Shown here piece by piece: positions 5,092 through 33,821 of a stretch of DNA of 64,000 bases. The stretch comes from Phenylobacterium sp. (GTDB lineage: Bacteria; Pseudomonadota; Alphaproteobacteria; Caulobacterales; Caulobacteraceae). The translations under genes were made by a program, and so were the position numbers. Within the stretch, counting starts at the first letter, position 1. Every line of letters begins with the position of its first letter. The notes under the pieces were generated by a model. The model was not told where the DNA came from, did not search any database, and saw only the letters and a list, made by a program, of their open reading frames with translations. The stretch spans positions 3,369-67,368 of the forward strand of contig NZ_JAUYOJ010000002.1 in NCBI RefSeq assembly GCF_030697925.1. The letters run 5' to 3'.

Positions 5092-6585
5092 ATGACTGAG
5101 ACCTCCAAGTTGATAGAGGGCCGCACCGGCCCGTGGGAAATGGTTCTGGGCCTGGAGATCCACGCCCAGGTGGCCTCGAACGCCAAGCTGTTCTCCGGCG
5201 CGGCCGTGGGCTTCGGCGCGGGGCCCAACCAGCAGGTCAGCCTGGTGGACGTGGCCATGCCCGGCATGCTGCCGGTCATCAACCGCCACTGCGTCGAGCA
5301 GGCGGTGAAGACCGGCCTTGGCCTCAAGGCCCAGATCAACCTCAAGAGCCATTTCGACCGGAAGAACTATTTCTATCCGGACCTGCCGCAGGGCTATCAG
5401 ATCAGCCAGTACAAGCACCCGATCGTCGGCGAGGGCGTGGTCATCGTCGAGCACGACGACGGCTCGACCTTCAATGTCCGGATCGAGCGCCTGCACCTGG
5501 AGCAGGACGCCGGCAAGAGCCTGCACGACCAGGACCCCAACGCCACCTATATGGACTTTAACCGGGCGGGCACGGCTCTGATGGAGATCGTGTCGATGCC
5601 CGACATGCGCTCGTCGGCCGAGGCCGCGGCCTATGTGAAGAAGGTCCGCACCATCCTGGTCTATCTGGGCACCTGCGACGGCGACATGGAGAAGGGCAAC
5701 CTGCGCGCCGACGTGAACGTGTCGGTTTGCCGCCCGGGCGACTACGAGAAGTTCCGCGAGACCGGCAGCTTCAGCCACTTGGGCACCCGCTGCGAGATCA
5801 AGAACGTCAATTCCTACCGCTACATCCAGCAGGCCATCGAGTACGAGGCCCGCCGCCAGATCGAGATCCTGGAGGACGGGGGCAAGATCGACCAGGAAAC
5901 CCGGCTGTTCGACCCGAACAAGCTGGAGACCCGTTCGATGCGGTCGAAGGAAGAGGCGCACGACTATCGCTACTTCCCCGATCCCGATCTGCTGCCGCTG
6001 GACCTCGACCCGGCCTGGGTGAAGCGGATCGAGGAAAGCCTGCCGGAGCTGCCGGACGCCAAGAAGGCCCGCCTGCAATCGCAGTACGGCCTGTCGGCCT
6101 ATGATGCCGGGGTGCTGATCATCGAGCAGGCCCGGTCCGACTTCTTCGAGGAAGCCGCCAAGGGCCGCGACGCCAAGCTGACCGCCAACTGGGTGACCAA
6201 CGAACTGGCCGCGCGGCTGGCCGCCGCCAATCTGGAGATCGGCGACAGCCCGCTGAAGCCCGACGCCATCGCCGAGCTGGTGGCCCTGATCGAGGAGGGG
6301 GTCATCTCCTCCAAGATCGCCAAGGACGTCTTTGAGCGGATGTGGGCCGGCGAGGGGCGCCCGCGCGAGATCGTCGAGAAGCAGGGCCTGCAGCAGGTCT
6401 CCGACACCGGGGCGCTGGAGAAGATCATCGAGGACCTGATCGCCGCCAATCCGGGCCAGGCGGCCTCGGTCAGGGAAAAGCCCCAGGCCATCGGCTGGTT
6501 CGTCGGCCAGGTCATGAAGGCCACCGGCGGCAAGGCCAATCCCGGGACGGTCAATCAGCTCCTGAAAGCGAAGCTGGGGCTCTAG
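5092..6585 (+). CDS. gatB: Asp/Glu-tRNA amidotransferase subunit B
   Basis: [37 protein letters not shown]-terminal YqeY-like domain. Confidence 0.98.
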
Positions 6586-6594
6586 ATTCGCGAG

Positions 6595-7344
6595 CTAGGC
6601 CTTCACCGCCTCGACCAGATAGCGCGTGTAGGTGAAGCTCAGCGGCTCGCCGGCCTCTGCTCCCGCCTGGAGCGCCTCGAGGACTTGCCGGTGTCGATCG
6701 ACGTCGAAGTCCTGAACGACCCAGGGAATGGCCTTGAGGAAATACGCCAGGGCTCCGACGTCGCTGAAGGTGACGGCGCCGCGCCAGGTCTCGGCCCGGC
6801 GCACCTCGCACCCGAGAACGCGAAGGTCGTCGACGACCCGATCCAGGGTGTTGCCGGGGTAGGCGAGGGGCGCGCCAAATGCTTCCGCCAGGTCGGCTAG
6901 GTTGTCTCCCGCCACCTGCTGGGTGAGGAAGACGCCGCCTGGCTGAAGCACGCGGACCATTTCGGCGGCCCGGAAACCGCCATGGCGGTTGAGGATCAGG
7001 TCGAATGACCCGTCGTCAAAGGGCATGCCCGCGCGGGCGCCGCCCCTGAAGACCTGCACGCCCAGCGGCTCCAGCCTAGCTCGGGCGATCGGCAGGTTCG
7101 GTTCGAAGCCTTCGACGGCCCGGGCGCGGCCGGGGAAAGGCGCCAGGGATGACAGGATTTCTCCACCCCCGGTGGCGACATCGAGCAGGTCGGTGGACTG
7201 GCAAATCGCCGCCCTGGCCAAAGCCAGATAGTCCCACACGGGTTCGGCCTCGACCATGCGGTCCTTGAGGTAGGAGAAGTCCCAACCCTCGAACGGCGCG
7301 GCCGCGTCGCGTCTCCACTGCTCCAGGCGTGCGTCGCCGGTCAT
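6595..7344 (-). CDS. class I SAM-dependent methyltransferase
   Basis: LLDVATGGGE motif I, PFDDGSFDLI, VLQPGGVF; start ATG at 7344 with RBS-like sequence. Confidence 0.85.
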   Translation of the reverse strand: MTGDARLEQWRRDAAAPFEGWDFSYLKDRMVEAEPVWDYLALARAAICQSTDLLDVATGGGEILSSLAPFPGRARAVEGFEPNLPIARARLEPLGVQVFRGGARAGMPFDDGSFDLILNRHGGFRAAEMVRVLQPGGVFLTQQVAGDNLADLAEAFGAPLAYPGNTLDRVVDDLRVLGCEVRRAETWRGAVTFSDVGALAYFLKAIPWVVQDFDVDRHRQVLEALQAGAEAGEPLSFTYTRYLVEAVKA

Positions 7345-20016: not shown

Positions 20017-21045
20017 CTAGGTTTCGACCGGATAGCCGCCCTCTCGCCAGGCCGTCATGCCGCCGTCCAGGGCGACGGCGCGGGTGAAGCCCAGCGACTG
20101 CAGCGTCGCCGCCGCCAGGGTGGAGATCTTGCCCAACTCGCAATAGGTCAAGATGCGCACCGTCGGGTCGGGGAAGGTCTCGTTGATCCGCAGCTCCAGT
20201 TGACCTCTGGGAAGCCAGCGCGCGCCAGGAATGTGGCCCGCCTCGAAGGCGTCACGCTCGCGCACGTCCAGCACCACCAAGTCGTTCTCGCGCGCCTCGA
20301 GCCGCCGCGAGAGTTCGCTCAGTCCGACGAAGGGCACCGCGGCGGAGGCCTCGGCCAGCAGCTGCGCCACCGACTTCTTGCCGCTCATGTTCACCCGTAG
20401 GGCCTCGGTGAGGTGGGTGGGCGCCGAGAGGTTCAACTCGCGCATCATGGCGACGAACCCGGCGCGATCGCGCTTCTGCAGGCGCGGGTTTTCGGCGATC
20501 TCGCGACCGATCGTCGTTGCGTCGCGACCCTTGTACTCGTGGGCCGGATAGACGCCGAGCGCCGGGTCCAGCTTCAGGATCTTGTTGAACAGGCTGTCGT
20601 AGAGCGCTTCCGGGTCGCCTGTCGGCAGGTCGGTGCGCCCGGTTCCGCCGATCAGCAGGGTGTCGCCAGTGAAGATGCGATCCTCCGCCAGCAACGTCAT
20701 GGAGTCGGCCGTGTGCCCGGGCGTGTGCATCGCCTGCAACCGCATCTGTCCGATCAGCAGCATGTCGCCGTCGTCCAGCCGTAGGTCGACAAAGGGCGCG
20801 GGGCTGTCGCGATGCATGACCACCTTGGCGGCGAGCGCGCCGGCGATTTCCCGCGCGCCCGAGAAGTGATCGGCATGGGTATGGGTGTCGATGACATAGT
20901 GGATCACCAGGCCGTCGCGCGCGGCGAGGCCGCGATAACGATCGATCTGGCTGATCTCCGGATCGATCAGGGTCGCGGCGCAGGTTTCGGCGCAGCCGAT
21001 CAGATAGGACCGGCAGCCGCCGACCTGGATAGTCTCGAAGACCAT
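20017..21045 (-). CDS. MBL-fold persulfide dioxygenase (ETHE1-like) fused to C-terminal rhodanese
   Basis: HTHADH, TPGHT, FTGDTL, YPAHEY; rhodanese LDVRE..GHIPGA and active-site CELGKIS. Confidence 0.85.
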   Translation of the reverse strand: MVFETIQVGGCRSYLIGCAETCAATLIDPEISQIDRYRGLAARDGLVIHYVIDTHTHADHFSGAREIAGALAAKVVMHRDSPAPFVDLRLDDGDMLLIGQMRLQAMHTPGHTADSMTLLAEDRIFTGDTLLIGGTGRTDLPTGDPEALYDSLFNKILKLDPALGVYPAHEYKGRDATTIGREIAENPRLQKRDRAGFVAMMRELNLSAPTHLTEALRVNMSGKKSVAQLLAEASAAVPFVGLSELSRRLEARENDLVVLDVRERDAFEAGHIPGARWLPRGQLELRINETFPDPTVRILTYCELGKISTLAAATLQSLGFTRAVALDGGMTAWREGGYPVET

Positions 21046-25490: not shown

Positions 25491-26030
25491 CTAGGCGCGG
25501 TTGGCGCTGGCCGTATGTTCAAGGGCCATGACGTCGGTGGCGTCCTCGGCGTCCATGATCTTCAGCAGCCGGGCGCGGGCCCGGTTGACCCGGCTCTTGA
25601 TGGTGCCCAGCGCGCAGCCGCAGATCTCGGCGGCCTCCTCGTAGGAGAGGCCCGCGGCGCCGACCAGCACCAGGGCCTCGCGGTGTTCGGGGGGCAGCTG
25701 GGCCAAGGCGTCCTGCAGGGCATGCATGGCCACGCTCCAGTCCTGGGTCGGCGGGCTGCGCAGGGCGCCGGCATATTCCCCCGTCTCGTCGCGCACCTCG
25801 CGGCGGCGGCGGATCACCTGGGTGTAGTAGGTATTGCGCAGGATTGTGAACAGCCAGGCCCGCAGGTTGGTGCCGGGCTCGAACTTGTCGCGGTTGGTCC
25901 AGGCCTTGATCAGGGTGTCCTGAACCAGGTCGTCGGCGTCGGAGCCGTTGTGGCTCAGTGACCAGGCGAACGCCCGCAGCGCCGGGATCATGCCGACGAC
26001 GTCATTACGCCAGTCGCTCTCTCCGCTCAT
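25491..26030 (-). CDS. ECF sigma factor of EcfG/ECF15 type (SigT/SigU-like)
   Basis: IPALRAFAWSL, ADDLVQDTL, TNLRAWLFTILRN, GLSYEEAAEICGCALGTIKSRVNRAR; start ATG at 26030; no adjacent phyR/nepR. Confidence 0.88.
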   Translation of the reverse strand: MSGESDWRNDVVGMIPALRAFAWSLSHNGSDADDLVQDTLIKAWTNRDKFEPGTNLRAWLFTILRNTYYTQVIRRRREVRDETGEYAGALRSPPTQDWSVAMHALQDALAQLPPEHREALVLVGAAGLSYEEAAEICGCALGTIKSRVNRARARLLKIMDAEDATDVMALEHTASANRA

Positions 26031-26092: not shown

Positions 26093-26117
26093 AACGCATC
26101 CGGACTCCATGTGTTCC
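26093..26117 (-). promoter_or_regulatory. EcfG/SigT-type promoter GGAAC-N16-CGTT for the sigma gene
   Basis: + strand AACG (26093-96), 16 nt, GTTCC (26113-17). Confidence 0.8.
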
Positions 26118-26160: not shown

Positions 26161-26185
26161 GGAACTCCCCGGGGGTGGCGGCGTT
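26161..26185 (+). promoter_or_regulatory. EcfG/SigT-type promoter GGAAC-N16-CGTT for egtB-egtD
   Basis: GGAAC tccccgggggtggcgg CGTT, 55 nt upstream of the ATG. Confidence 0.8.
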
Positions 26186-26239
26186 TGGCGACTCGGTTCG
26201 CCGAAGACATCCCTTCAACGCGGTGACAGGAGCAGTCCC

Positions 26240-28462
26240 ATGGCGCCATCTGACGAGACTGCCGCCGCGCCGGCCTTGCACAGGGCCGCCCAGGCGGAGG
26301 CCGCCGCGCGCTACCTGCGCGTGCGTGAGGCCAGCCTGGCCATGACCGCGCATCTGTCGGCCGAAGACCAGCTCGCCCAGTCGATGCCCGACGCCAGCCC
26401 GACCAAGTGGCACCTGGCCCACACAACCTGGTTCTTCGAGACCTTCCTGCTGATCCCGAGGCTGGCCGACTACCGGCCGTTCAATCGCAGCTTCGCCTAT
26501 CTGTTCAACTCGTATTACGAGGCTCTCGGCCCCCGCCAGCCGCGGCCGGAGCGCGGACTGCTGACCCGCCCGTCGCTGGACGAGGTCAAGGCCTATCGCG
26601 CCCATGTGGACGACGGCATGATCCGGCTGCTGCGCCGCGACGCTTGCGCGGTCGCCGATCTGCTGGATCTGGGCCTGGCCCATGAGGAACAGCATCAGGA
26701 GCTGATCCTGATGGACATCCTGCACCTGTTCTCCCAGTCGCCGCTGAAGCCTGCCTACGCCCCGGCGCCGGCCCTGCCGGTGGGCGCTGATCCCGGTCCC
26801 GCGCGGCCCGTGGACTTCGCCGGGGGCCTGGTGGAGATCGGCCATTCGGGCGCGGACTTCGCCTTCGACAACGAGGGGCCGCGTCACAAGGTCTATCTGC
26901 AGCCCTATCGCATGGCCGACCGGCTGGTGACGAACAGCGAGTGGCTGGCCTTCATGGCCGACGGCGGTTACGCGCGCCCCGAACTCTGGCTCTCGGAAGG
27001 CTGGGCTACGGTGCAGGCCGAAGGTTGGAATGCGCCGCTCTACTGGCAAGAGGCGCCATCGGGTTGGCGAGCCATGACCCTGCAGGGTCTGCGCGCCATC
27101 GCCCCGCACGCCCCGGTGACCCACATCAGCTTCTACGAGGCTGACGCCTATGCCACCTGGGCCGGGGCGCGCCTGCCGACCGAGGCCGAGTGGGAGCACG
27201 CCGCCCGCGACATCCCGATGCGCGGCAACTTTCTCGGCAGCGGTCAGTTCGGCCCCGCCGCGACCCCAGCCGGGGCGTCGGGCCTGCGCCAGATGTTCGG
27301 CGACACCTGGGAATGGACCCGTAGCGCCTATGGCCCCTATCCCGGATTCCATCCGGCCGATGGGGCGGTGGGCGAGTACAACGGCAAGTTCATGATCGGC
27401 CAGATGGTGCTGCGCGGTGGCTGCTGCGTGACGCCGCAGGGCCACACGCGGGCCAGCTATCGCAACTTCTTCCAGCCGCAGCAGCGCTGGATGTTCTCGG
27501 GCCTGCGCCTGGCCTGGGACGCCATGGTCCGGGTCGAGGACGACGGCAGCGCCTTCGCCGCTGACGTGCGCCGCGGTCTGTCCCAGCGTCGCAAGGAGTT
27601 GCCGGCCAAGTACTTCTACGACGCCGAGGGCTCGGCCCTGTTCGAGGCGATCACCGACCTGCCGGAATACTATCCGACCCGCACCGAGGTCGCCCTGTTA
27701 CGCGCGACGGCGCCGGACATGGCCTCCCACATTCCGGCTGGCGCGGCCCTGGTGGAGTTCGGCAGCGGCGCCAGCACCAAGACCCGCATCCTGCTCGACG
27801 CGGCGCCGCGGACCGGGGTCTATGTCCCCATCGACATCAGCCGCTCGGCGCTCGACGCCGCCGCTGAAGCCATCGGCCGCGACTATCCGGGCCTTGAGGT
27901 GGCGCCTCTGGTGGACGACTTCACCACGGCGCTGGACCTGCCGGGCGAGGTGGGGGACCGACCCCGAGTCGGCTTCTTCCCGGGCTCGACCATCGGCAAC
28001 TTCCGGCCCCAGGAGGTGGTGGCCTTCCTGACCGCGGCCAGGCATCTGCTGGGCGAGGGCGCCGGCTTCCTGGTGGGGATAGACCTGGTCAAGGACGCCG
28101 GGACCCTGGTGGCGGCCTATGACGACGCCCAGGGCGTCACGGCCGCCTTCAACCTGAATCTTCTGGCGCGGATCAATCGGGAGCTGGAGGGGGATTTCGA
28201 TCTCTCGGCCTTCGAGCACCGGGCGGTGTGGAACGCGGAGGAAAGCCGGATGGAGATGCATCTGGTGAGCCTGCGCGATCAGGGCGTCCGCGCGGCGGGG
28301 GCCACGTTCCGCTTCAAGAGCGGCGAGACGATCCATACGGAAAACTCCTACAAGTTCACCGTGGACGGCTTCGCGAAGCTGGCGGAACAGGCGGGGTGGA
28401 AGCTGGAGCGGCGCTGGGAAAGCCCCGCTCCGAGCTTCGCGGTGGTCCTACTGAGAGCCTAG
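26240..28462 (+). CDS. egtB-egtD: ergothioneine biosynthesis fusion: sulfoxide synthase EgtB plus histidine trimethylase EgtD
   Basis: N-terminal part: SPTKWHLAH, FNSYY, HEEQHQE, FGE-like LPTEAEWE, GEYNGKFM. C-terminal part: KELPAKYFYD, EYYPTRTE, EFGSG, FPGSTIGN, GVTAAFNLN, IHTENSYK. Single reading frame. Confidence 0.92.
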   Translation: MAPSDETAAAPALHRAAQAEAAARYLRVREASLAMTAHLSAEDQLAQSMPDASPTKWHLAHTTWFFETFLLIPRLADYRPFNRSFAYLFNSYYEALGPRQPRPERGLLTRPSLDEVKAYRAHVDDGMIRLLRRDACAVADLLDLGLAHEEQHQELILMDILHLFSQSPLKPAYAPAPALPVGADPGPARPVDFAGGLVEIGHSGADFAFDNEGPRHKVYLQPYRMADRLVTNSEWLAFMADGGYARPELWLSEGWATVQAEGWNAPLYWQEAPSGWRAMTLQGLRAIAPHAPVTHISFYEADAYATWAGARLPTEAEWEHAARDIPMRGNFLGSGQFGPAATPAGASGLRQMFGDTWEWTRSAYGPYPGFHPADGAVGEYNGKFMIGQMVLRGGCCVTPQGHTRASYRNFFQPQQRWMFSGLRLAWDAMVRVEDDGSAFAADVRRGLSQRRKELPAKYFYDAEGSALFEAITDLPEYYPTRTEVALLRATAPDMASHIPAGAALVEFGSGASTKTRILLDAAPRTGVYVPIDISRSALDAAAEAIGRDYPGLEVAPLVDDFTTALDLPGEVGDRPRVGFFPGSTIGNFRPQEVVAFLTAARHLLGEGAGFLVGIDLVKDAGTLVAAYDDAQGVTAAFNLNLLARINRELEGDFDLSAFEHRAVWNAEESRMEMHLVSLRDQGVRAAGATFRFKSGETIHTENSYKFTVDGFAKLAEQAGWKLERRWESPAPSFAVVLLRA

Positions 28463-28677
28463 CTCTCCAGGCGTTCGCCGCGGGTGCGTCCGCCCCCACG
28501 GGACGATTCCCCGCCCTTGCGACCCGCCGAAGCCGCGAGGTCGCGGTCCTTGGCGAAACTACGTTTCTCACCCGGGACGCTGGCGCCGCCCTTGCGGGCG
28601 ATCTCGCGTCGGCGTTCGGGATTCATGGCTGCGAACCCTCGGCGGGATTTCGGCTTGGCGTTCGGATCAAGGTCCAT
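28459..28677 (-). CDS. KGG-repeat general stress protein (GsiB/YciG-like)
   Basis: RGFAAMNPERRREIARKGG...AASAGRKGG; start ATG at 28677 with RBS GAGGAG. Confidence 0.88.
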   Translation of the reverse strand: MDLDPNAKPKSRRGFAAMNPERRREIARKGGASVPGEKRSFAKDRDLAASAGRKGGESSRGGGRTRGERLES

Positions 28678-28799: not shown

Positions 28800-30050
28800 C
28801 TATTCGCGCCTTAGCGCCTCGATGGGGTCGAGCCGCGCTGCGCGCCAGGACGGATAGGCCCCGAACACCAGGCCCACGAGGCTGGAAAACCCTAGCGCAA
28901 TAGGGCCTGCCCACGGTGGAATCGCCACAGGCCAGGCGCCCAGCTTGGCGACGGCGACGGCCCCAAGCACACCGATCAGCAGGCCGATCAGGCCGCCGGC
29001 CAACGAAAGCGTGATCGCCTCGAGGGCAAATTGAATCAGAACCTGGGAGCGTTTCGCCCCCACCGCCATGCGCAGGCCGATCTCCCGGGTGCGCTCGGTG
29101 ACGGCCACCAGCATGATGTTCATGATGCCGACCCCGCCCACCACCAGCGACACCGCGGCCACCGCGGCCAGCAGGATGGTGAAGGTGGCGACGGCCGCCT
29201 GGGAGGCCTGGAGGATCGAGGCCATGTTCTGGGTCTGGAAATCGTCATCGTCTCCGGCGCGGATGCGATGCTGCTCGCGCAGCAGGTTGACGACGTCTTC
29301 CTGCACCCGGTCCAGGCTGTCGGCGTCGACGGCCTTCACATAGATGGTCTGGACGGTGTCGCCGCGGGCGCGGCGGCCGACGATGCGCGAGCGCACCGCT
29401 TCGAGCGGACCCAGCAGGACATCGTCCTGGTCCTGGCCGAAGCTCGACTGACCCTTGGATTCCAGCACCCCGATCACCTCGAAGGGCACGCTGCGCACCC
29501 GCACCCGGCGGCCGACGGGGTCGAGATCGCCCCACAGCTCGCGCGCCACGGTCTGGCCGATCACCACGACCTTGCGGCCCTGGCGCGACTCCCGCTCGTC
29601 GAACATGCGGCCCGAGGCGATGGCGAGGTCGCGGGCGACCAGGTAGTCCGGGGTCACCCCCTCGATACGGCTGTTCCAGTTGGCGCCGTCGGCGGTGAGC
29701 TGGGCCTGGCCGCGCACCACGGGGGCGATGGCGGCGACGTTCTCGACCTGTTTGGCGATGGCTTCGGCGTCGGCGTCCTTCAGAGACTGACCTGAACCCG
29801 CGGCGCCCATCACGAAGCCGCCTCCGCCGCCCCCGGCGCCGCCTCGGGAGGCGCCAGGCGAGACGATGATCAGGTTGGAGCCGAGCCCGGCGATTGTCGA
29901 GGTCACCCGCTGCTGCGCGCCCAGGCCGATGGAGGTCATCATCACCACGGCGGCCACCCCGATCACCACGCCCAGCGAGGTTAGGGCGGAGCGCATCGGG
30001 TGAGCGATGATGGCTCCCGTGGCGAAACGCAGAAGCTCGATGGAGCGCAT
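28800..30050 (-). CDS. MacB-like ABC permease (FtsX domain)
   Basis: [48 protein letters not shown]. Confidence 0.93.
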
Positions 30051-30052
30051 GG

Positions 30053-30730
30053 TCAGACCCCCCGCTCGTCGGAGACCACCAGACCGTCGCGGAAAGAGAT
30101 GCGGCGATCGGTGGAGGCCGCCACGTCGTGGTCATGCGTGACCAGGATCAGGGTCAGGCCTTCCCTGTTGAGCTGCTTGAACAGGGCCAGCACCTCCTGG
30201 CCGGTCTGGGTGTCCAGCGCCCCGGTGGGCTCGTCGGCAAGCAGCAGGTCGGGCGAATTGGCCAGCGAGCGGGCGATGGCCACCCGCTGCTGCTGGCCGC
30301 CGGAGAGCTGGGTTGGTTTGTGACCCATGCGCGGACCCAGGCCGACGCGCTCCAGCATCTCGGCGGCCCGGTCTCGGCGCTCGCGCGGGGCCAGGCCCGC
30401 ATAGATCATCGGCAGTTCGACGTTCTGCAAGGCGGTCAGCCGCGGCAGGAGCTGGAAGGACTGGAACACGAAACCGATCCGCCGGCGGCGGAACTCGGCC
30501 AGCTCGTCGTCGCTGAACGCCCCCACGTCCTCGCCCTCGAAACGGTAGACGCCCGTGGAAGGACGGTCGAGGCCGCCCAGGATGTTCATCAGCGACGACT
30601 TGCCCGAGCCCGACGGCCCGATCACCGCCACGTTCTCTCCGCGCCCGATGGAGAGAGTGACGCCGGCCAGGGCCGCGACTTCCTCCTCGCCCATCACGTA
30701 GAGCTTCCGGAGATCGGAGATCTCGATCAC
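30053..30730 (-). CDS. ABC ATP-binding protein (MacB/LolD type)
   Basis: [30 protein letters not shown]. Confidence 0.96.
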
Positions 30731-30734
30731 GGCG

Positions 30735-32321
30735 TCACATCCGCACCCGCACGCCGCCGCCGCCGCCCGTCGGGCCGCCCATGGGGGAGGGCGCCTTGAT
30801 CTTGGCCTTCGGTCCGCCGCCAGTGATCACCTGGTCGCCGGCCTTGAGCGCGCCGCGGATCTCGGTGAACGAGCCGTCGGTGGCGCCCACCCGCACCGGG
30901 ATCGGAACCGGCTTGTCGTCGCGCAGCACATAGACCACCCCGCCGGTGAAGCCCGAGCGGTCGCCGCGGCCGCCCTGGCCGATGGTGGCGCGCAGGGCCG
31001 CGAGCTTGGTCTTCTGGCCGGCCTTCAGAGAGGGTTCCAGCTTGGCCAGGGCTTCGGTCATGTTCTTGCGCATGGCCTCGCGCATCGCGCCGCGGTCGCC
31101 GCCGGCCGAGGCGAAGGCCGCCGCCGACTTCTGGCGCAGCTCGGCCTGGATGGCATCCCATTTCTTCTGCTGGTCGGCGTCGAGGTCGAGCTGGGCGATG
31201 ATCCGCTGGCCGCCCATGCCGCCGCCCTGGCGTCCGCCGCCGCCCTGCTGGCGCTGGCCGCCGCCGCCGCCGCCGGGGCCGCCCATGCCAGGCGGGCCAA
31301 AGCCCGGCGCGCGCACGGTCTGGCCGTTCTCGCTGGCCGGGGTCCAGCGCAGGGCCGCGACCGGGACCTTCATGACATTTGGCTTCTGCTGGATGACGAT
31401 GTCGGCGTTGGCGGTCATGCCGGGCAGCAGGTTGCCGCGCGGATTGTTGGCCTCGGCCATGACGATATAGGCGACCACGTTTTGCTCGGTGACCGGTTGC
31501 TTGCGGACCTGGGTGACGATCCCGGTGAAGTTCTCGTCCGGGAAGGCGTCGACGGTGAACTTCACCGACTGGCCCTCCTGCACCTGGCCGATGTCGGCCT
31601 CGTCGACGGAGATCTTCACCTCCACCTTCGACAGGTCCTGGGCGATGCGGAACAGGATCGGGGCCTGCAGGCTGGCGGCCACGGTCTGGCCGGGCTCGAT
31701 CTGGCGGTCGACGATCACCCCGTCGATCGGGGCGACGATAGTGGTGCGGCCCAGGTCCACACGCTGGCTGCGCAGGGCCGCCTGGCTCTGGGCGATGCGG
31801 GCGCGGGCGCTGTCCACGCCGGCCTGGGCCTGGCGGAAGGCGGCCTGGGAAACGTCCAGGGTCGAAGGCGCATAGATGCCCTGGCTCACCAGCGTCTTTT
31901 TGCGATCGTAGTCGGCCTGGGCCGAGGCCAGCCCTGCCTGGGCCTGGCGCAGGGCGGCCTGGCCGGCCACCACGTCGGCCTGACCTTGCTGGACCCGGCT
32001 CTCATAGGTCTGGGGATCGAGCACGGCCAGCACCTGGCCCCGCTTCACCTCATCGTTGAAGTCGACCATCACCTGGGTGATCTGGCCCGAGATCTGCGAC
32101 CCCACGTCCACCGTCACCAGGGCCTCCAGCGTTCCGGAGGCCGAGACCGATTTCGTGATCGATCCGGTCTCCACCGCCGCCGTCCGGTAGGGATCCTTCG
32201 GCGCCTTGGGCTTCATCACCTGCCAGCCGACCAGCCCCGCGGCCAACAGGGCGACGACGGCGAGCGCGATCCGGGCGACGCGGGGCAGGCGCTTGGCCGA
32301 ACGGATGGGAGAGGGGCTCAT
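30735..32321 (-). CDS. MacA-like periplasmic adaptor with Gly-rich/helical insertion
   Basis: TM anchor, VGSQISGQI, APIDGVIV, VDEADIG, LLPGMTA. Confidence 0.92.
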   Translation of the reverse strand: MSPSPIRSAKRLPRVARIALAVVALLAAGLVGWQVMKPKAPKDPYRTAAVETGSITKSVSASGTLEALVTVDVGSQISGQITQVMVDFNDEVKRGQVLAVLDPQTYESRVQQGQADVVAGQAALRQAQAGLASAQADYDRKKTLVSQGIYAPSTLDVSQAAFRQAQAGVDSARARIAQSQAALRSQRVDLGRTTIVAPIDGVIVDRQIEPGQTVAASLQAPILFRIAQDLSKVEVKISVDEADIGQVQEGQSVKFTVDAFPDENFTGIVTQVRKQPVTEQNVVAYIVMAEANNPRGNLLPGMTANADIVIQQKPNVMKVPVAALRWTPASENGQTVRAPGFGPPGMGGPGGGGGGQRQQGGGGRQGGGMGGQRIIAQLDLDADQQKKWDAIQAELRQKSAAAFASAGGDRGAMREAMRKNMTEALAKLEPSLKAGQKTKLAALRATIGQGGRGDRSGFTGGVVYVLRDDKPVPIPVRVGATDGSFTEIRGALKAGDQVITGGGPKAKIKAPSPMGGPTGGGGGVRVRM

Positions 32322-32465
32322 GCGACGGGGGATCTCCGAAATTCGCCCAATGGTTTAGCCTGCTCTACCTGAACCGCAGCCAACCGTCAGATACGGCGCC
32401 GCGCAGGCTTGCCGTCTCAAGAACAAACCGGCGTTACGTGGCAATGTCGGTGTGGCAACAAATGC

Positions 32466-33821
32466 CTAGAGCGGTAGCTGGACCCGGGCGGTCAGCCCGC
32501 CGCCGCCGCGGTTGATGAGGGAGACATCCCCGCCGTGACCGCGGGCCACGGAGCGCACGACGGCGAGGCCGAGGCCTATCCCGCCGGTTTGGCGGCTACG
32601 CGAGGGCTCGCGGCGGTAGAAGGGTTCGAAGACCCGTTCGCGATCCTCGTTCGGGATGCCGGGACCGTCGTCTTCGATCTCGACCACGGCGCTGCCGGCG
32701 TCGACGAAGACCCGCGCCCGGGCCCGGCCGCCATACTTCACGGCGTTGTCGAGCAGGTTGGTGAACATGCGGCGCAGGGCGACCGGATCGCCGTGCAGGA
32801 CCACCTTTTCGCCGCGCTCGACCTCGGTGTCGGCGCCGGTCTCGGCCATCTCGTCGCAGACGCTCTCCAGCAGGGAGGAAAGCTCCAAGGGTGTGCGCTC
32901 CCCGGCGCGGGTGGCGTCGCGCACGAAGGTCAGGGCCGCGGAGATCATCTCCTCCATCTGGTCGATGTCGGCGGCCATCTTGGCGCGGCTGTCCTCCGGC
33001 GCGCTCTCGATGCGGAACCGCAGGCGGGTGAGCGGCGTGCGCAGGTCGTGGGCGATGGCGCCGACCATGGCGGTGCGGTCCTCCACATAGCGGCGCAGGC
33101 GCTCCTGCATGTCGTTGAAGGCGCGCGCGGCGATGGCCACCTCGGCGGGGCCCTTCAGTGACAGCGGCGCGGCGCGGGGATCGCGCCCCAGCCGCTCGGC
33201 GGCGTCGGCGAACAGGCCGATGGGCGCCGACAGCCGGCGCGCGAACACATAGGCCACGGGCGCCATGGCCAGACCCGAGAGCAGGAACCAGAGCACGATC
33301 CGCTGCTGCCAGGGATCGAGCCCGATCGCGGGCTCGGGCCGCACGATCATCCATCTGCCGTCCGGCTGGCGGACCGCCACGTCGAAGGGTGCGATCAGGA
33401 AGTGCTCCTCGCGCTCCGCGGCGCCGCCCTCACGCGCCATTCGGTCGCGGACGATGCGGAACACCCGCCGATCGGAGACCGGGAAGCGGGAGGTCGCGGC
33501 GATCACCACGCGCTCGTCGGGGACGCCCAGCGCCTGGGCCAGTTGATGCCGGATGATCGGCGCCATGCGGCCCTCCATCGGCAGCTGGGGCGCGGCGTCG
33601 GCGAACTGAACGGTCAGCGGGCGTCGTTCGGTGAAGGTGGGCGTGGCGCCCCGGAACGCCGCGACGATCTCGCTCACGCGGTAGAAGTCCGGCGCGGGTG
33701 GCGGCAGGTTGAACAGCATGACCAGGCTGATGGTCTGGGCGGCCACCAGGCTGATGCCGATCAGGGCCAGGAGCTGGGCGAACAGCGAGGCCGTCGGCCG
33801 TCCCGACCAGGGAAGTCTCAT
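32466..33821 (-). CDS. sensor histidine kinase (2 TM, HAMP, HisKA)
   Basis: AIAHDLRTPL, NLLDNAVKYG, DDGPGI, GIGLGL. Confidence 0.95.
   Translation of the reverse strand: MRLPWSGRPTASLFAQLLALIGISLVAAQTISLVMLFNLPPPAPDFYRVSEIVAAFRGATPTFTERRPLTVQFADAAPQLPMEGRMAPIIRHQLAQALGVPDERVVIAATSRFPVSDRRVFRIVRDRMAREGGAAEREEHFLIAPFDVAVRQPDGRWMIVRPEPAIGLDPWQQRIVLWFLLSGLAMAPVAYVFARRLSAPIGLFADAAERLGRDPRAAPLSLKGPAEVAIAARAFNDMQERLRRYVEDRTAMVGAIAHDLRTPLTRLRFRIESAPEDSRAKMAADIDQMEEMISAALTFVRDATRAGERTPLELSSLLESVCDEMAETGADTEVERGEKVVLHGDPVALRRMFTNLLDNAVKYGGRARARVFVDAGSAVVEIEDDGPGIPNEDRERVFEPFYRREPSRSRQTGGIGLGLAVVRSVARGHGGDVSLINRGGGGLTARVQLPL

Follow-up and report, generated by a model that had tools for sequence, protein, structure and literature searches.

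The closest described relatives of the gene considered here belong to ergothioneine biosynthesis. The EgtB from Chloracidobacterium thermophilum (CthEgtB) is a stand-alone, tetrameric sulfoxide synthase of about 430 amino acids (aa). It prefers cysteine, and the essential Tyr93 and Tyr94 replace in it Tyr377 of the mycobacterial EgtB (MthEgtB) that uses gamma-glutamylcysteine (gamma-Glu-Cys) (PMC10903977). In mycobacteria, the histidine methyltransferase EgtD stands apart as a protein of its own, and the pathway proceeds through gamma-Glu-Cys with the help of EgtA, EgtC and EgtE. Fungal Egt1, e.g., NcEgt1 from Neurospora crassa, is a fusion of egtD and egtB with a preference for cysteine (PMC11664081), in which the methyltransferase comes first and gamma-Glu-Cys, EgtA and EgtC are bypassed. 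The 5-histidylcysteine sulfoxide synthase OvoA also links an N-terminal sulfoxide synthase to a C-terminal methyltransferase but differs in its regiochemistry and in its unrelated methyltransferase domain. In Methylobacterium aquaticum, "egtBD" designates two genes in tandem, without which no ergothioneine is made, as shown by deletion (PMC4621440). The open-access literature, to which the search was restricted at the exclusion of subscription papers, yielded no biochemical study of a natural bacterial fusion of the EgtB-then-EgtD order and a single passing mention of it. The present analysis deals with such a fusion, named egtBD, which occurs in a stretch of 64,000 nucleotides (nt), referred to as the window, from a Phenylobacterium sp. 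of the family Caulobacteraceae (RefSeq assembly GCF_030697925.1, contig NZ_JAUYOJ010000002.1).

The egtBD gene consists of a single open reading frame of 740 aa on the forward strand (26240..28462, with the stop codon TAG at 28460-28462), preceded by a Shine-Dalgarno sequence AGGAG (26228..26232) located 7 nt ahead of the ATG at 26240, and its product starts with an N-terminus, MAPSDE, common to homologs. The Pfam domains DinB_2 (residues 26-154), FGE-sulfatase (residues 191-324 and onwards) and Methyltransf_33 (residues 439-739) succeed one another along the protein. The EgtB model of NCBIfam (TIGR03440) matches residues 22-425 over positions 2-413 of its 413 positions with 577.6 bits, against a cut-off of 360, and the EgtD model (TIGR03438) matches residues 439-737 over positions 2-300 of 301 with 405.4 bits, against a cut-off of 290.9. 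Since both halves exceed the equivalog cut-offs, they are identified as an EgtB sulfoxide synthase domain, built from DinB_2 and FGE-sulfatase-like parts (26303..27514, forward strand), and an EgtD histidine N-alpha-trimethyltransferase domain (27554..28450, forward strand). A linker of residues 426-438 (27515..27553, forward strand), WDAMVRVEDDGSA, separates the two domains and includes an in-frame ATG at 27524 encoding Met429. The single frame and the domain order, opposite to that of fungal Egt1, thus agree with the initial annotation, and the junction it had read as LRLAWDA-M-VRVEDD, together with the internal ATG, is found in the sequence (...SGLRLAWDA-M-VRVEDDGSAFAADV...). The whole genome contains one EgtB match and one EgtD match, both inside this open reading frame.

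With a probability that we estimate at about 0.82, and judging from sequence comparisons, egtBD encodes a bifunctional enzyme whose EgtD domain makes hercynine, whose type II EgtB domain adds cysteine to it, and whose expression is under an EcfG-type stress control. Under stress, an EcfG-like sigma factor would transcribe the gene from a promoter at 26161-26185. The EgtD domain would convert L-histidine and three molecules of S-adenosylmethionine (SAM) into hercynine, which the EgtB domain, using a non-heme Fe(II) held by three histidines and O2, would join with L-cysteine to yield S-hercynyl-L-cysteine sulfoxide, with Tyr92 and Tyr93 acting as the acid-base pair of this step. A C-S lyase dependent on pyridoxal phosphate (PLP) and encoded elsewhere would finish the synthesis of ergothioneine, which the EcfG-type control would make part of the stress response. 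The minimal enzyme proposed earlier, leading from hercynine to hercynylcysteine sulfoxide, is retained in so far as a two-activity chain is concerned, but the predicted starting substrate is histidine and not hercynine, because the EgtD domain makes hercynine itself.

The EgtB half is of type II on every sequence criterion. Its nearest solved structures are those of CthEgtB (6o6l, 6qki and 8qf6), which match residues 24-427 with E values of about 1e-148 and scores near 500 bits; the mycobacterial type I EgtB (4x8b) reaches 157 bits, SenA and OvsA about 97 bits, and EgtB-IV 73 bits. Tyr92 and Tyr93 of the FNSYYEA loop of the DinB domain (codons at 26513..26518, forward strand), in which a type II-like feature had already been recognized, align with Tyr93 and Tyr94 of CthEgtB; out of 128 fused homologs, 126 keep the former and 127 the latter. 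The predicted iron ligands His61, His148 and His152 align with His62, His153 and His157 of CthEgtB and with His51, His134 and His138 of MthEgtB, and occur in all 128 homologs. Arg99, Arg102 and Arg105 align with the arginine cluster of CthEgtB; depending on the position, the active-site residues of the EgtB half are kept in 123 to 128 of these homologs. In the column of Tyr377 of MthEgtB, the protein displays a Val (phmmer) or Ala373 (MAFFT), the exact column being alignment-dependent but the residue in neither case a Tyr. The twin tyrosines, the lack of a Tyr377 equivalent and the closeness to CthEgtB all lead to the type II assignment, and CthEgtB differs from the Phenylobacterium protein by being devoid of the complete C-terminal EgtD that the latter carries.

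The EgtD half is similarly well preserved. It matches the EgtD of Mycobacterium smegmatis and M. tuberculosis (4pim, 7scf) with an E value of 2e-71. The histidine-binding site of EgtD comprises Tyr39, Phe47, Tyr56, Thr163, Asn166, Tyr206, Thr213, Met252, Glu282 and Ser284 (PMC8593015), every one of which is conserved in the Phenylobacterium protein as Tyr460, Phe468, Tyr477, Thr584, Asn587, Tyr627, Thr634, Met673, Glu701 and Ser703, each residue being kept in 124 to 128 of the 128 homologs.

With respect to the other genes of the pathway, the genome (4.8 Mb in 251 contigs, about 90% complete) differs from the mycobacterial situation. Neither egtA, egtC nor egtE occurs among the neighbours of egtBD in the window, as previously noticed, and none of them has a match above the cut-off in the genome at this level of completeness. 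The best EgtE match, a PvdN/SufS-like class V PLP enzyme, reaches 97.5 bits against a cut-off of 400, the best EgtC match 21.7 bits against 218.65, and the best EgtA match, which is probably the gamma-Glu-Cys ligase of glutathione synthesis, 161.7 bits against 370.8. This lack of egtA, egtC and egtE fits a short route requiring histidine, SAM, cysteine and O2, and the lack of EgtC in particular fits cysteine as the predicted sulfur donor of the EgtB half.

The evidence for a stress control comes from the region upstream of egtBD. A gene encoding an EcfG-like extracytoplasmic function (ECF) sigma factor of 179 aa (25491..26030, reverse strand), with the domains Sigma70_r2, r4_2 and PhyR_sigma2 and a resemblance to PRK12546/12547, is oriented divergently from egtBD. 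The intergenic region of about 210 bp contains two copies of the EcfG-type promoter-like motif GGAAC-N16-CGTT, one directed toward egtBD (26161..26185, forward strand, 55 nt before the ATG) and the other toward the sigma-factor gene itself (26093..26117, reverse strand), as would suit autoregulation; these are the only two occurrences of the motif in the 64-kb window, and no sigma-70-like promoter was found in this intergenic region. Both motifs recur in five Phenylobacterium-type loci (L008-L012), with conserved boxes and divergent spacers, and the motif on the sigma-factor side is also kept in L015. The order of sigma factor, egtBD and a convergent gene for a KGG-repeat stress protein of 72 aa (28459..28677, reverse strand; Pfam KGG) is found in the same six loci, and the sigma factors of the syntenic Phenylobacterium loci share 83-86% identity. 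The forward-strand motif also precedes the fused gene of Caulobacter sp. 1776. Moreover, the related sequence GGAAC-N16-(A)ACGTT lies about 140 nt upstream of the start of the match to the unfused egtB in seven out of seven Bradyrhizobium loci (L023, L025, L026, L029, L030, L032 and L034), which suggests that Alphaproteobacteria widely place their ergothioneine genes under general-stress control. In Sphingopyxis granuli, egtB and egtD are reported as members of the EcfG regulon (PMC7083833). The fused loci of beta- and gammaproteobacteria lack the motif, which agrees with a sigma factor specific to alphaproteobacteria. The divergently encoded EcfG-type sigma factor thus probably drives the transcription of egtBD.

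A few points weigh against the proposed reading. Across the genome, GGAAC-N16/17-CGTT was found 63 times, vs 57 occurrences expected from the base composition; without such an enrichment, the promoter call rests on the position, orientation and conservation of the motifs. No gene could be assigned to the C-S lyase, the top EgtE-like match falling far below the cut-off, in a genome that is only about 90% complete. The organism, owing to its GshA-like match, probably makes gamma-Glu-Cys, and CthEgtB reportedly has some activity with this compound.

The last two points lead to the best surviving alternative, according to which the EgtB half uses gamma-Glu-Cys and a non-orthologous hydrolase then removes the glutamyl group. 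In addition to the GshA-like ligase (161.7 bits), the conservation of arginines that align with the gamma-Glu-Cys-binding Arg87 and Arg90 of MthEgtB speaks in its favour. However, no EgtC accompanies the gene, the protein is far nearer to the cysteine-preferring type II enzyme than to type I, and it possesses the twin-Tyr architecture while the equivalent of Tyr377 is missing, so that this alternative appears unlikely and cysteine is retained as the probable donor.

Much less probable still is an N-terminal domain that would be a SenA-type selenoneine synthase or an OvoA-type ovothiol synthase instead of an EgtB. The SenA model (NF041186) yields 348.3 bits and the N-terminal OvoA model 88.6 bits, and the genome possesses a genuine selD, but these scores fall below the respective cut-offs of 420 (SenA) and 400 (OvoA, TIGR04344), whereas the EgtB model is well above its own. 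The selD gene stands beside mnmH, encoding the tRNA 2-selenouridine synthase, and no SenB-like glycosyltransferase adjoins it; this pairing indicates that the organism makes selenophosphate for tRNA 2-selenouridine and lends no support to a selenoneine reading. The two genes form a divergent pair (G000:C126:20830-21759 on the reverse strand and the adjacent gene on the forward strand; 5729-6775 and 6781-7953 in L108). Furthermore, egtBD is the single EgtB/SenA-like gene of the genome and its C-terminal methyltransferase is of the EgtD type, in line with the earlier claim that it differs from that of OvoA, the OvoA structure 8khq (61 bits) covering residues 52-423 only.

The junction was examined by comparison with the 128 fused homologs, which include isolate genomes. 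All of them keep a single frame, as do 14 out of 14 homologs sharing 69-90% identity with the protein. Counted from the last EgtB to the first EgtD residue, the linkers of the 128 homologs measure 7 to 49 aa (median 12; 11 aa in the Phenylobacterium protein, whose linker is put at about 11-13 aa), and their sequence is poorly conserved. None of the 128 displays a Met in the column of Met429 and 12 have a Met anywhere in the linker. A variable and poorly conserved segment, devoid of a Met in this column, corresponds to a true interdomain linker rather than to a hidden stop codon or to a conserved site of internal initiation. An AlphaFold2 model built from 44 sequences consists of two well-folded domains, with a predicted local distance difference test (pLDDT) mostly of 90 or more in the EgtD half; the pLDDT of residues 431-434 in the linker is below 50 and the predicted template modelling score is 0.56, which indicates no confident fixed interface between the EgtB and EgtD domains.

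These comparisons also bear on the idea that two products are made in vivo, namely the full-length protein and a separate EgtD translated from the ATG at 27524. This ATG coincides exactly with the boundary between the domains and is preceded, at 5 nt, by a weak GGGA, but these purines belong to the conserved Trp-Asp codons of EgtB, and the rarity of Met in the linkers makes such a second product very improbable; with no homolog having a Met at this position, the internal ATG is, on alignment evidence, incidental. The least credible alternative, an assembly or sequencing error masking the stop or the overlap that would normally split egtB and egtD, can draw on the 251-contig draft state of the genome, on the single indel at an overlapping stop/start that separates unfused relatives from a fusion, and on a fused Variovorax gene that neighbours a nearly identical unfused isolate gene on the tree, but it conflicts with the one-frame, 7-49 aa linkers of the 128 homologs from many independent assemblies, with the 11 member sequences of the 90% cluster to which the protein belongs, and with the fused state of all five EgtB-positive genomes of the genus. 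Isolates possessing the fused gene are Phenylobacterium sp. Root77, Root700 and Root1290, Caulobacter sp. 1776 and Paraburkholderia fungorum. On the strength of these comparisons, the fusion is genuine and not a sequencing artefact.

The fusion is also far from being rare, contrary to what the initial annotation implied: it is common in Caulobacteraceae, where it represents the majority form, sporadic elsewhere, and already named EgtB in RefSeq. A protein search returned at least 8000 candidates, all with E values of at most 1e-10; the 120 matches listed all share the same three-domain architecture of about 730-800 aa and are called either "ergothioneine biosynthesis protein EgtB" or "dimethylhistidine N-methyltransferase". 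A survey of the family covered 121 genomes from 27 genera, among which 94 contain an EgtB above the cut-off, and the fusions were counted from the length of the open frame at each EgtB match. The lengths are bimodal, with about 54 frames of 720-894 aa and about 42 of 399-526 aa in a manual count, so that, as judged by frame length, about 54 of 96 EgtB loci are fused; all five EgtB-positive genomes of the genus Phenylobacterium belong to the long-frame class. In another genus of the family (g24; genomes G024, G078, G093, G106 and G117), frames of 722-758 aa match the EgtB model with 155-165 bits, below the cut-off, and are probably OvoA-type ovothiol synthases, not EgtB. In a class-wide survey with 150 families represented by one genome each, EgtB exceeds the cut-off in 38 genomes and a long frame occurs in only three of them, i.e., the Phenylobacterium genome itself, one more member of its family and one member of another family. 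Among the best 80 species-level GTDB loci, 21 show an uninterrupted frame and 20 of these are true fusions, the remaining one, from Cupriavidus, being a stand-alone EgtB. A presence of the fusion in nearly every phylum was considered and rejected on this count. A fused egtBD in Methylobacterium was equally ruled out, since the genes are tandem in the published work and two open reading frames occur at the Methylobacterium loci.

A maximum-likelihood tree of the EgtB halves places the protein in an all-fused clade of 15 members with 97% support, comprising Phenylobacterium, Caulobacter, Pseudoxanthomonas, Luteibacter, Pseudomonas sp. NFACC02 and Paraburkholderia fungorum. This mixing of Phenylobacterium and Caulobacter with other groups within one clade points to horizontal transfer. 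Separate fused tips correspond to Rhizomicrobium, a Variovorax metagenome-assembled genome (MAG), SAR116, Acidimicrobiales and another alphaproteobacterial MAG. At least six changes between the fused and unfused states are needed on the tree, of which at least four are forced by well-supported branches, and about ten distinct clusters of the EgtB-then-EgtD order occur in the top 150 among representatives at 50% identity. The fused Variovorax gene (L033/L047 pair) differs very little from its unfused counterpart in the isolate Root318D1, with branch lengths of 0.07-0.09, and represents either a very recent fusion or an error in the MAG. The reverse order, that of Egt1, is found in P0123, P0127 and P0129, which share 49-51% identity with the Phenylobacterium protein and pass both equivalog cut-offs; with P0201 and P0223, the EgtD-first proteins measure 722-795 aa. 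The fusion in fungal Egt1 is of independent origin.

The egtB-egtD pairs of Methylobacterium, Bradyrhizobium and other Caulobacteraceae have the same activities, the same order and a type II EgtB, but consist of two translationally coupled open reading frames instead of one frame with a linker. In 16 of 20 loci sampled from unfused members of the family, the start of egtD and the stop of egtB overlap in different frames (GATGCTTGA, ATGA or TGATG), so that one insertion or deletion close to the 3' end of egtB would suffice to create the fusion. The unfused genes share only about 60% and about 50% identity with the corresponding halves of egtBD, which indicates that they belong to a lineage different from that of the Phenylobacterium gene. 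An origin from a single stop codon or by readthrough was considered and rejected: 55 of 59 unfused pairs are in the same frame among the top-ranked loci vs none of 16 in an unbiased sample, and this same-frame excess in L022-L083, compared with L088-L107, is apparently an artefact that arises when the ranking joins genes in the same frame.

As for what the fusion may bring, the flexibility of the linker and the absence of a confidently predicted interface in the structural model suggest that the advantage would most likely lie in a 1:1 stoichiometry and in the proximity of the two domains rather than in a rigid structural channel. A bolder and rather doubtful proposal is that the EgtB-then-EgtD tether has been selected and is not neutral, given its at least four to six independent origins and its majority status in Caulobacteraceae, with EgtD domains surrounding a tetrameric EgtB core and hercynine being consumed locally. 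If this were true, the tether would free EgtD from inhibition by its product and permit ergothioneine to be made in a fast burst from one stress-induced transcript, and the bacterial enzyme would be kinetically better and more compact than fungal Egt1 for production strains. The egtBD gene is otherwise a typical member of a well-populated family which is already, if incompletely, annotated, the public names covering one activity only ("EgtB" in RefSeq, "dimethylhistidine N-methyltransferase" in JGI). Its recognition makes Phenylobacterium, like many Caulobacteraceae, a probable producer of ergothioneine via a two-activity, cysteine-dependent and stress-controlled route. A one-gene module leading from histidine to hercynylcysteine sulfoxide would be handy for engineering, a purpose already served by Egt1 and by the combination of a type II EgtB with EgtD. 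The remaining interest resides in the fact that the fusion arose repeatedly and independently, and in a possible improvement of the flux by tethering.

Among the other features surrounding egtBD, the KGG gene lies downstream of the fused gene in 10 related loci (L008-L015 and L018), and no general-stress motif, allowing for up to one mismatch, occurs upstream of it. The stop codons of egtBD and of the KGG gene overlap within the palindrome CTAG (28459-28462), with no terminator-like hairpin between the two genes; this overlap is not kept in L008, where a gap of about 47 nt separates them. A MacB-type ATP-binding cassette efflux operon (28800-33821, reverse strand) follows, comprising an HlyD-family adaptor (30735-32321), an ATPase (30053-30730) and a MacB permease (28800-30050), preceded by a HAMP/HisKA sensor kinase gene (32466-33821, reverse strand). 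On the other side of egtBD, a gene at 20017-21045 (reverse strand) encodes a 342-aa fusion of a metallo-beta-lactamase fold with a rhodanese domain, possibly a persulfide dioxygenase-sulfurtransferase.

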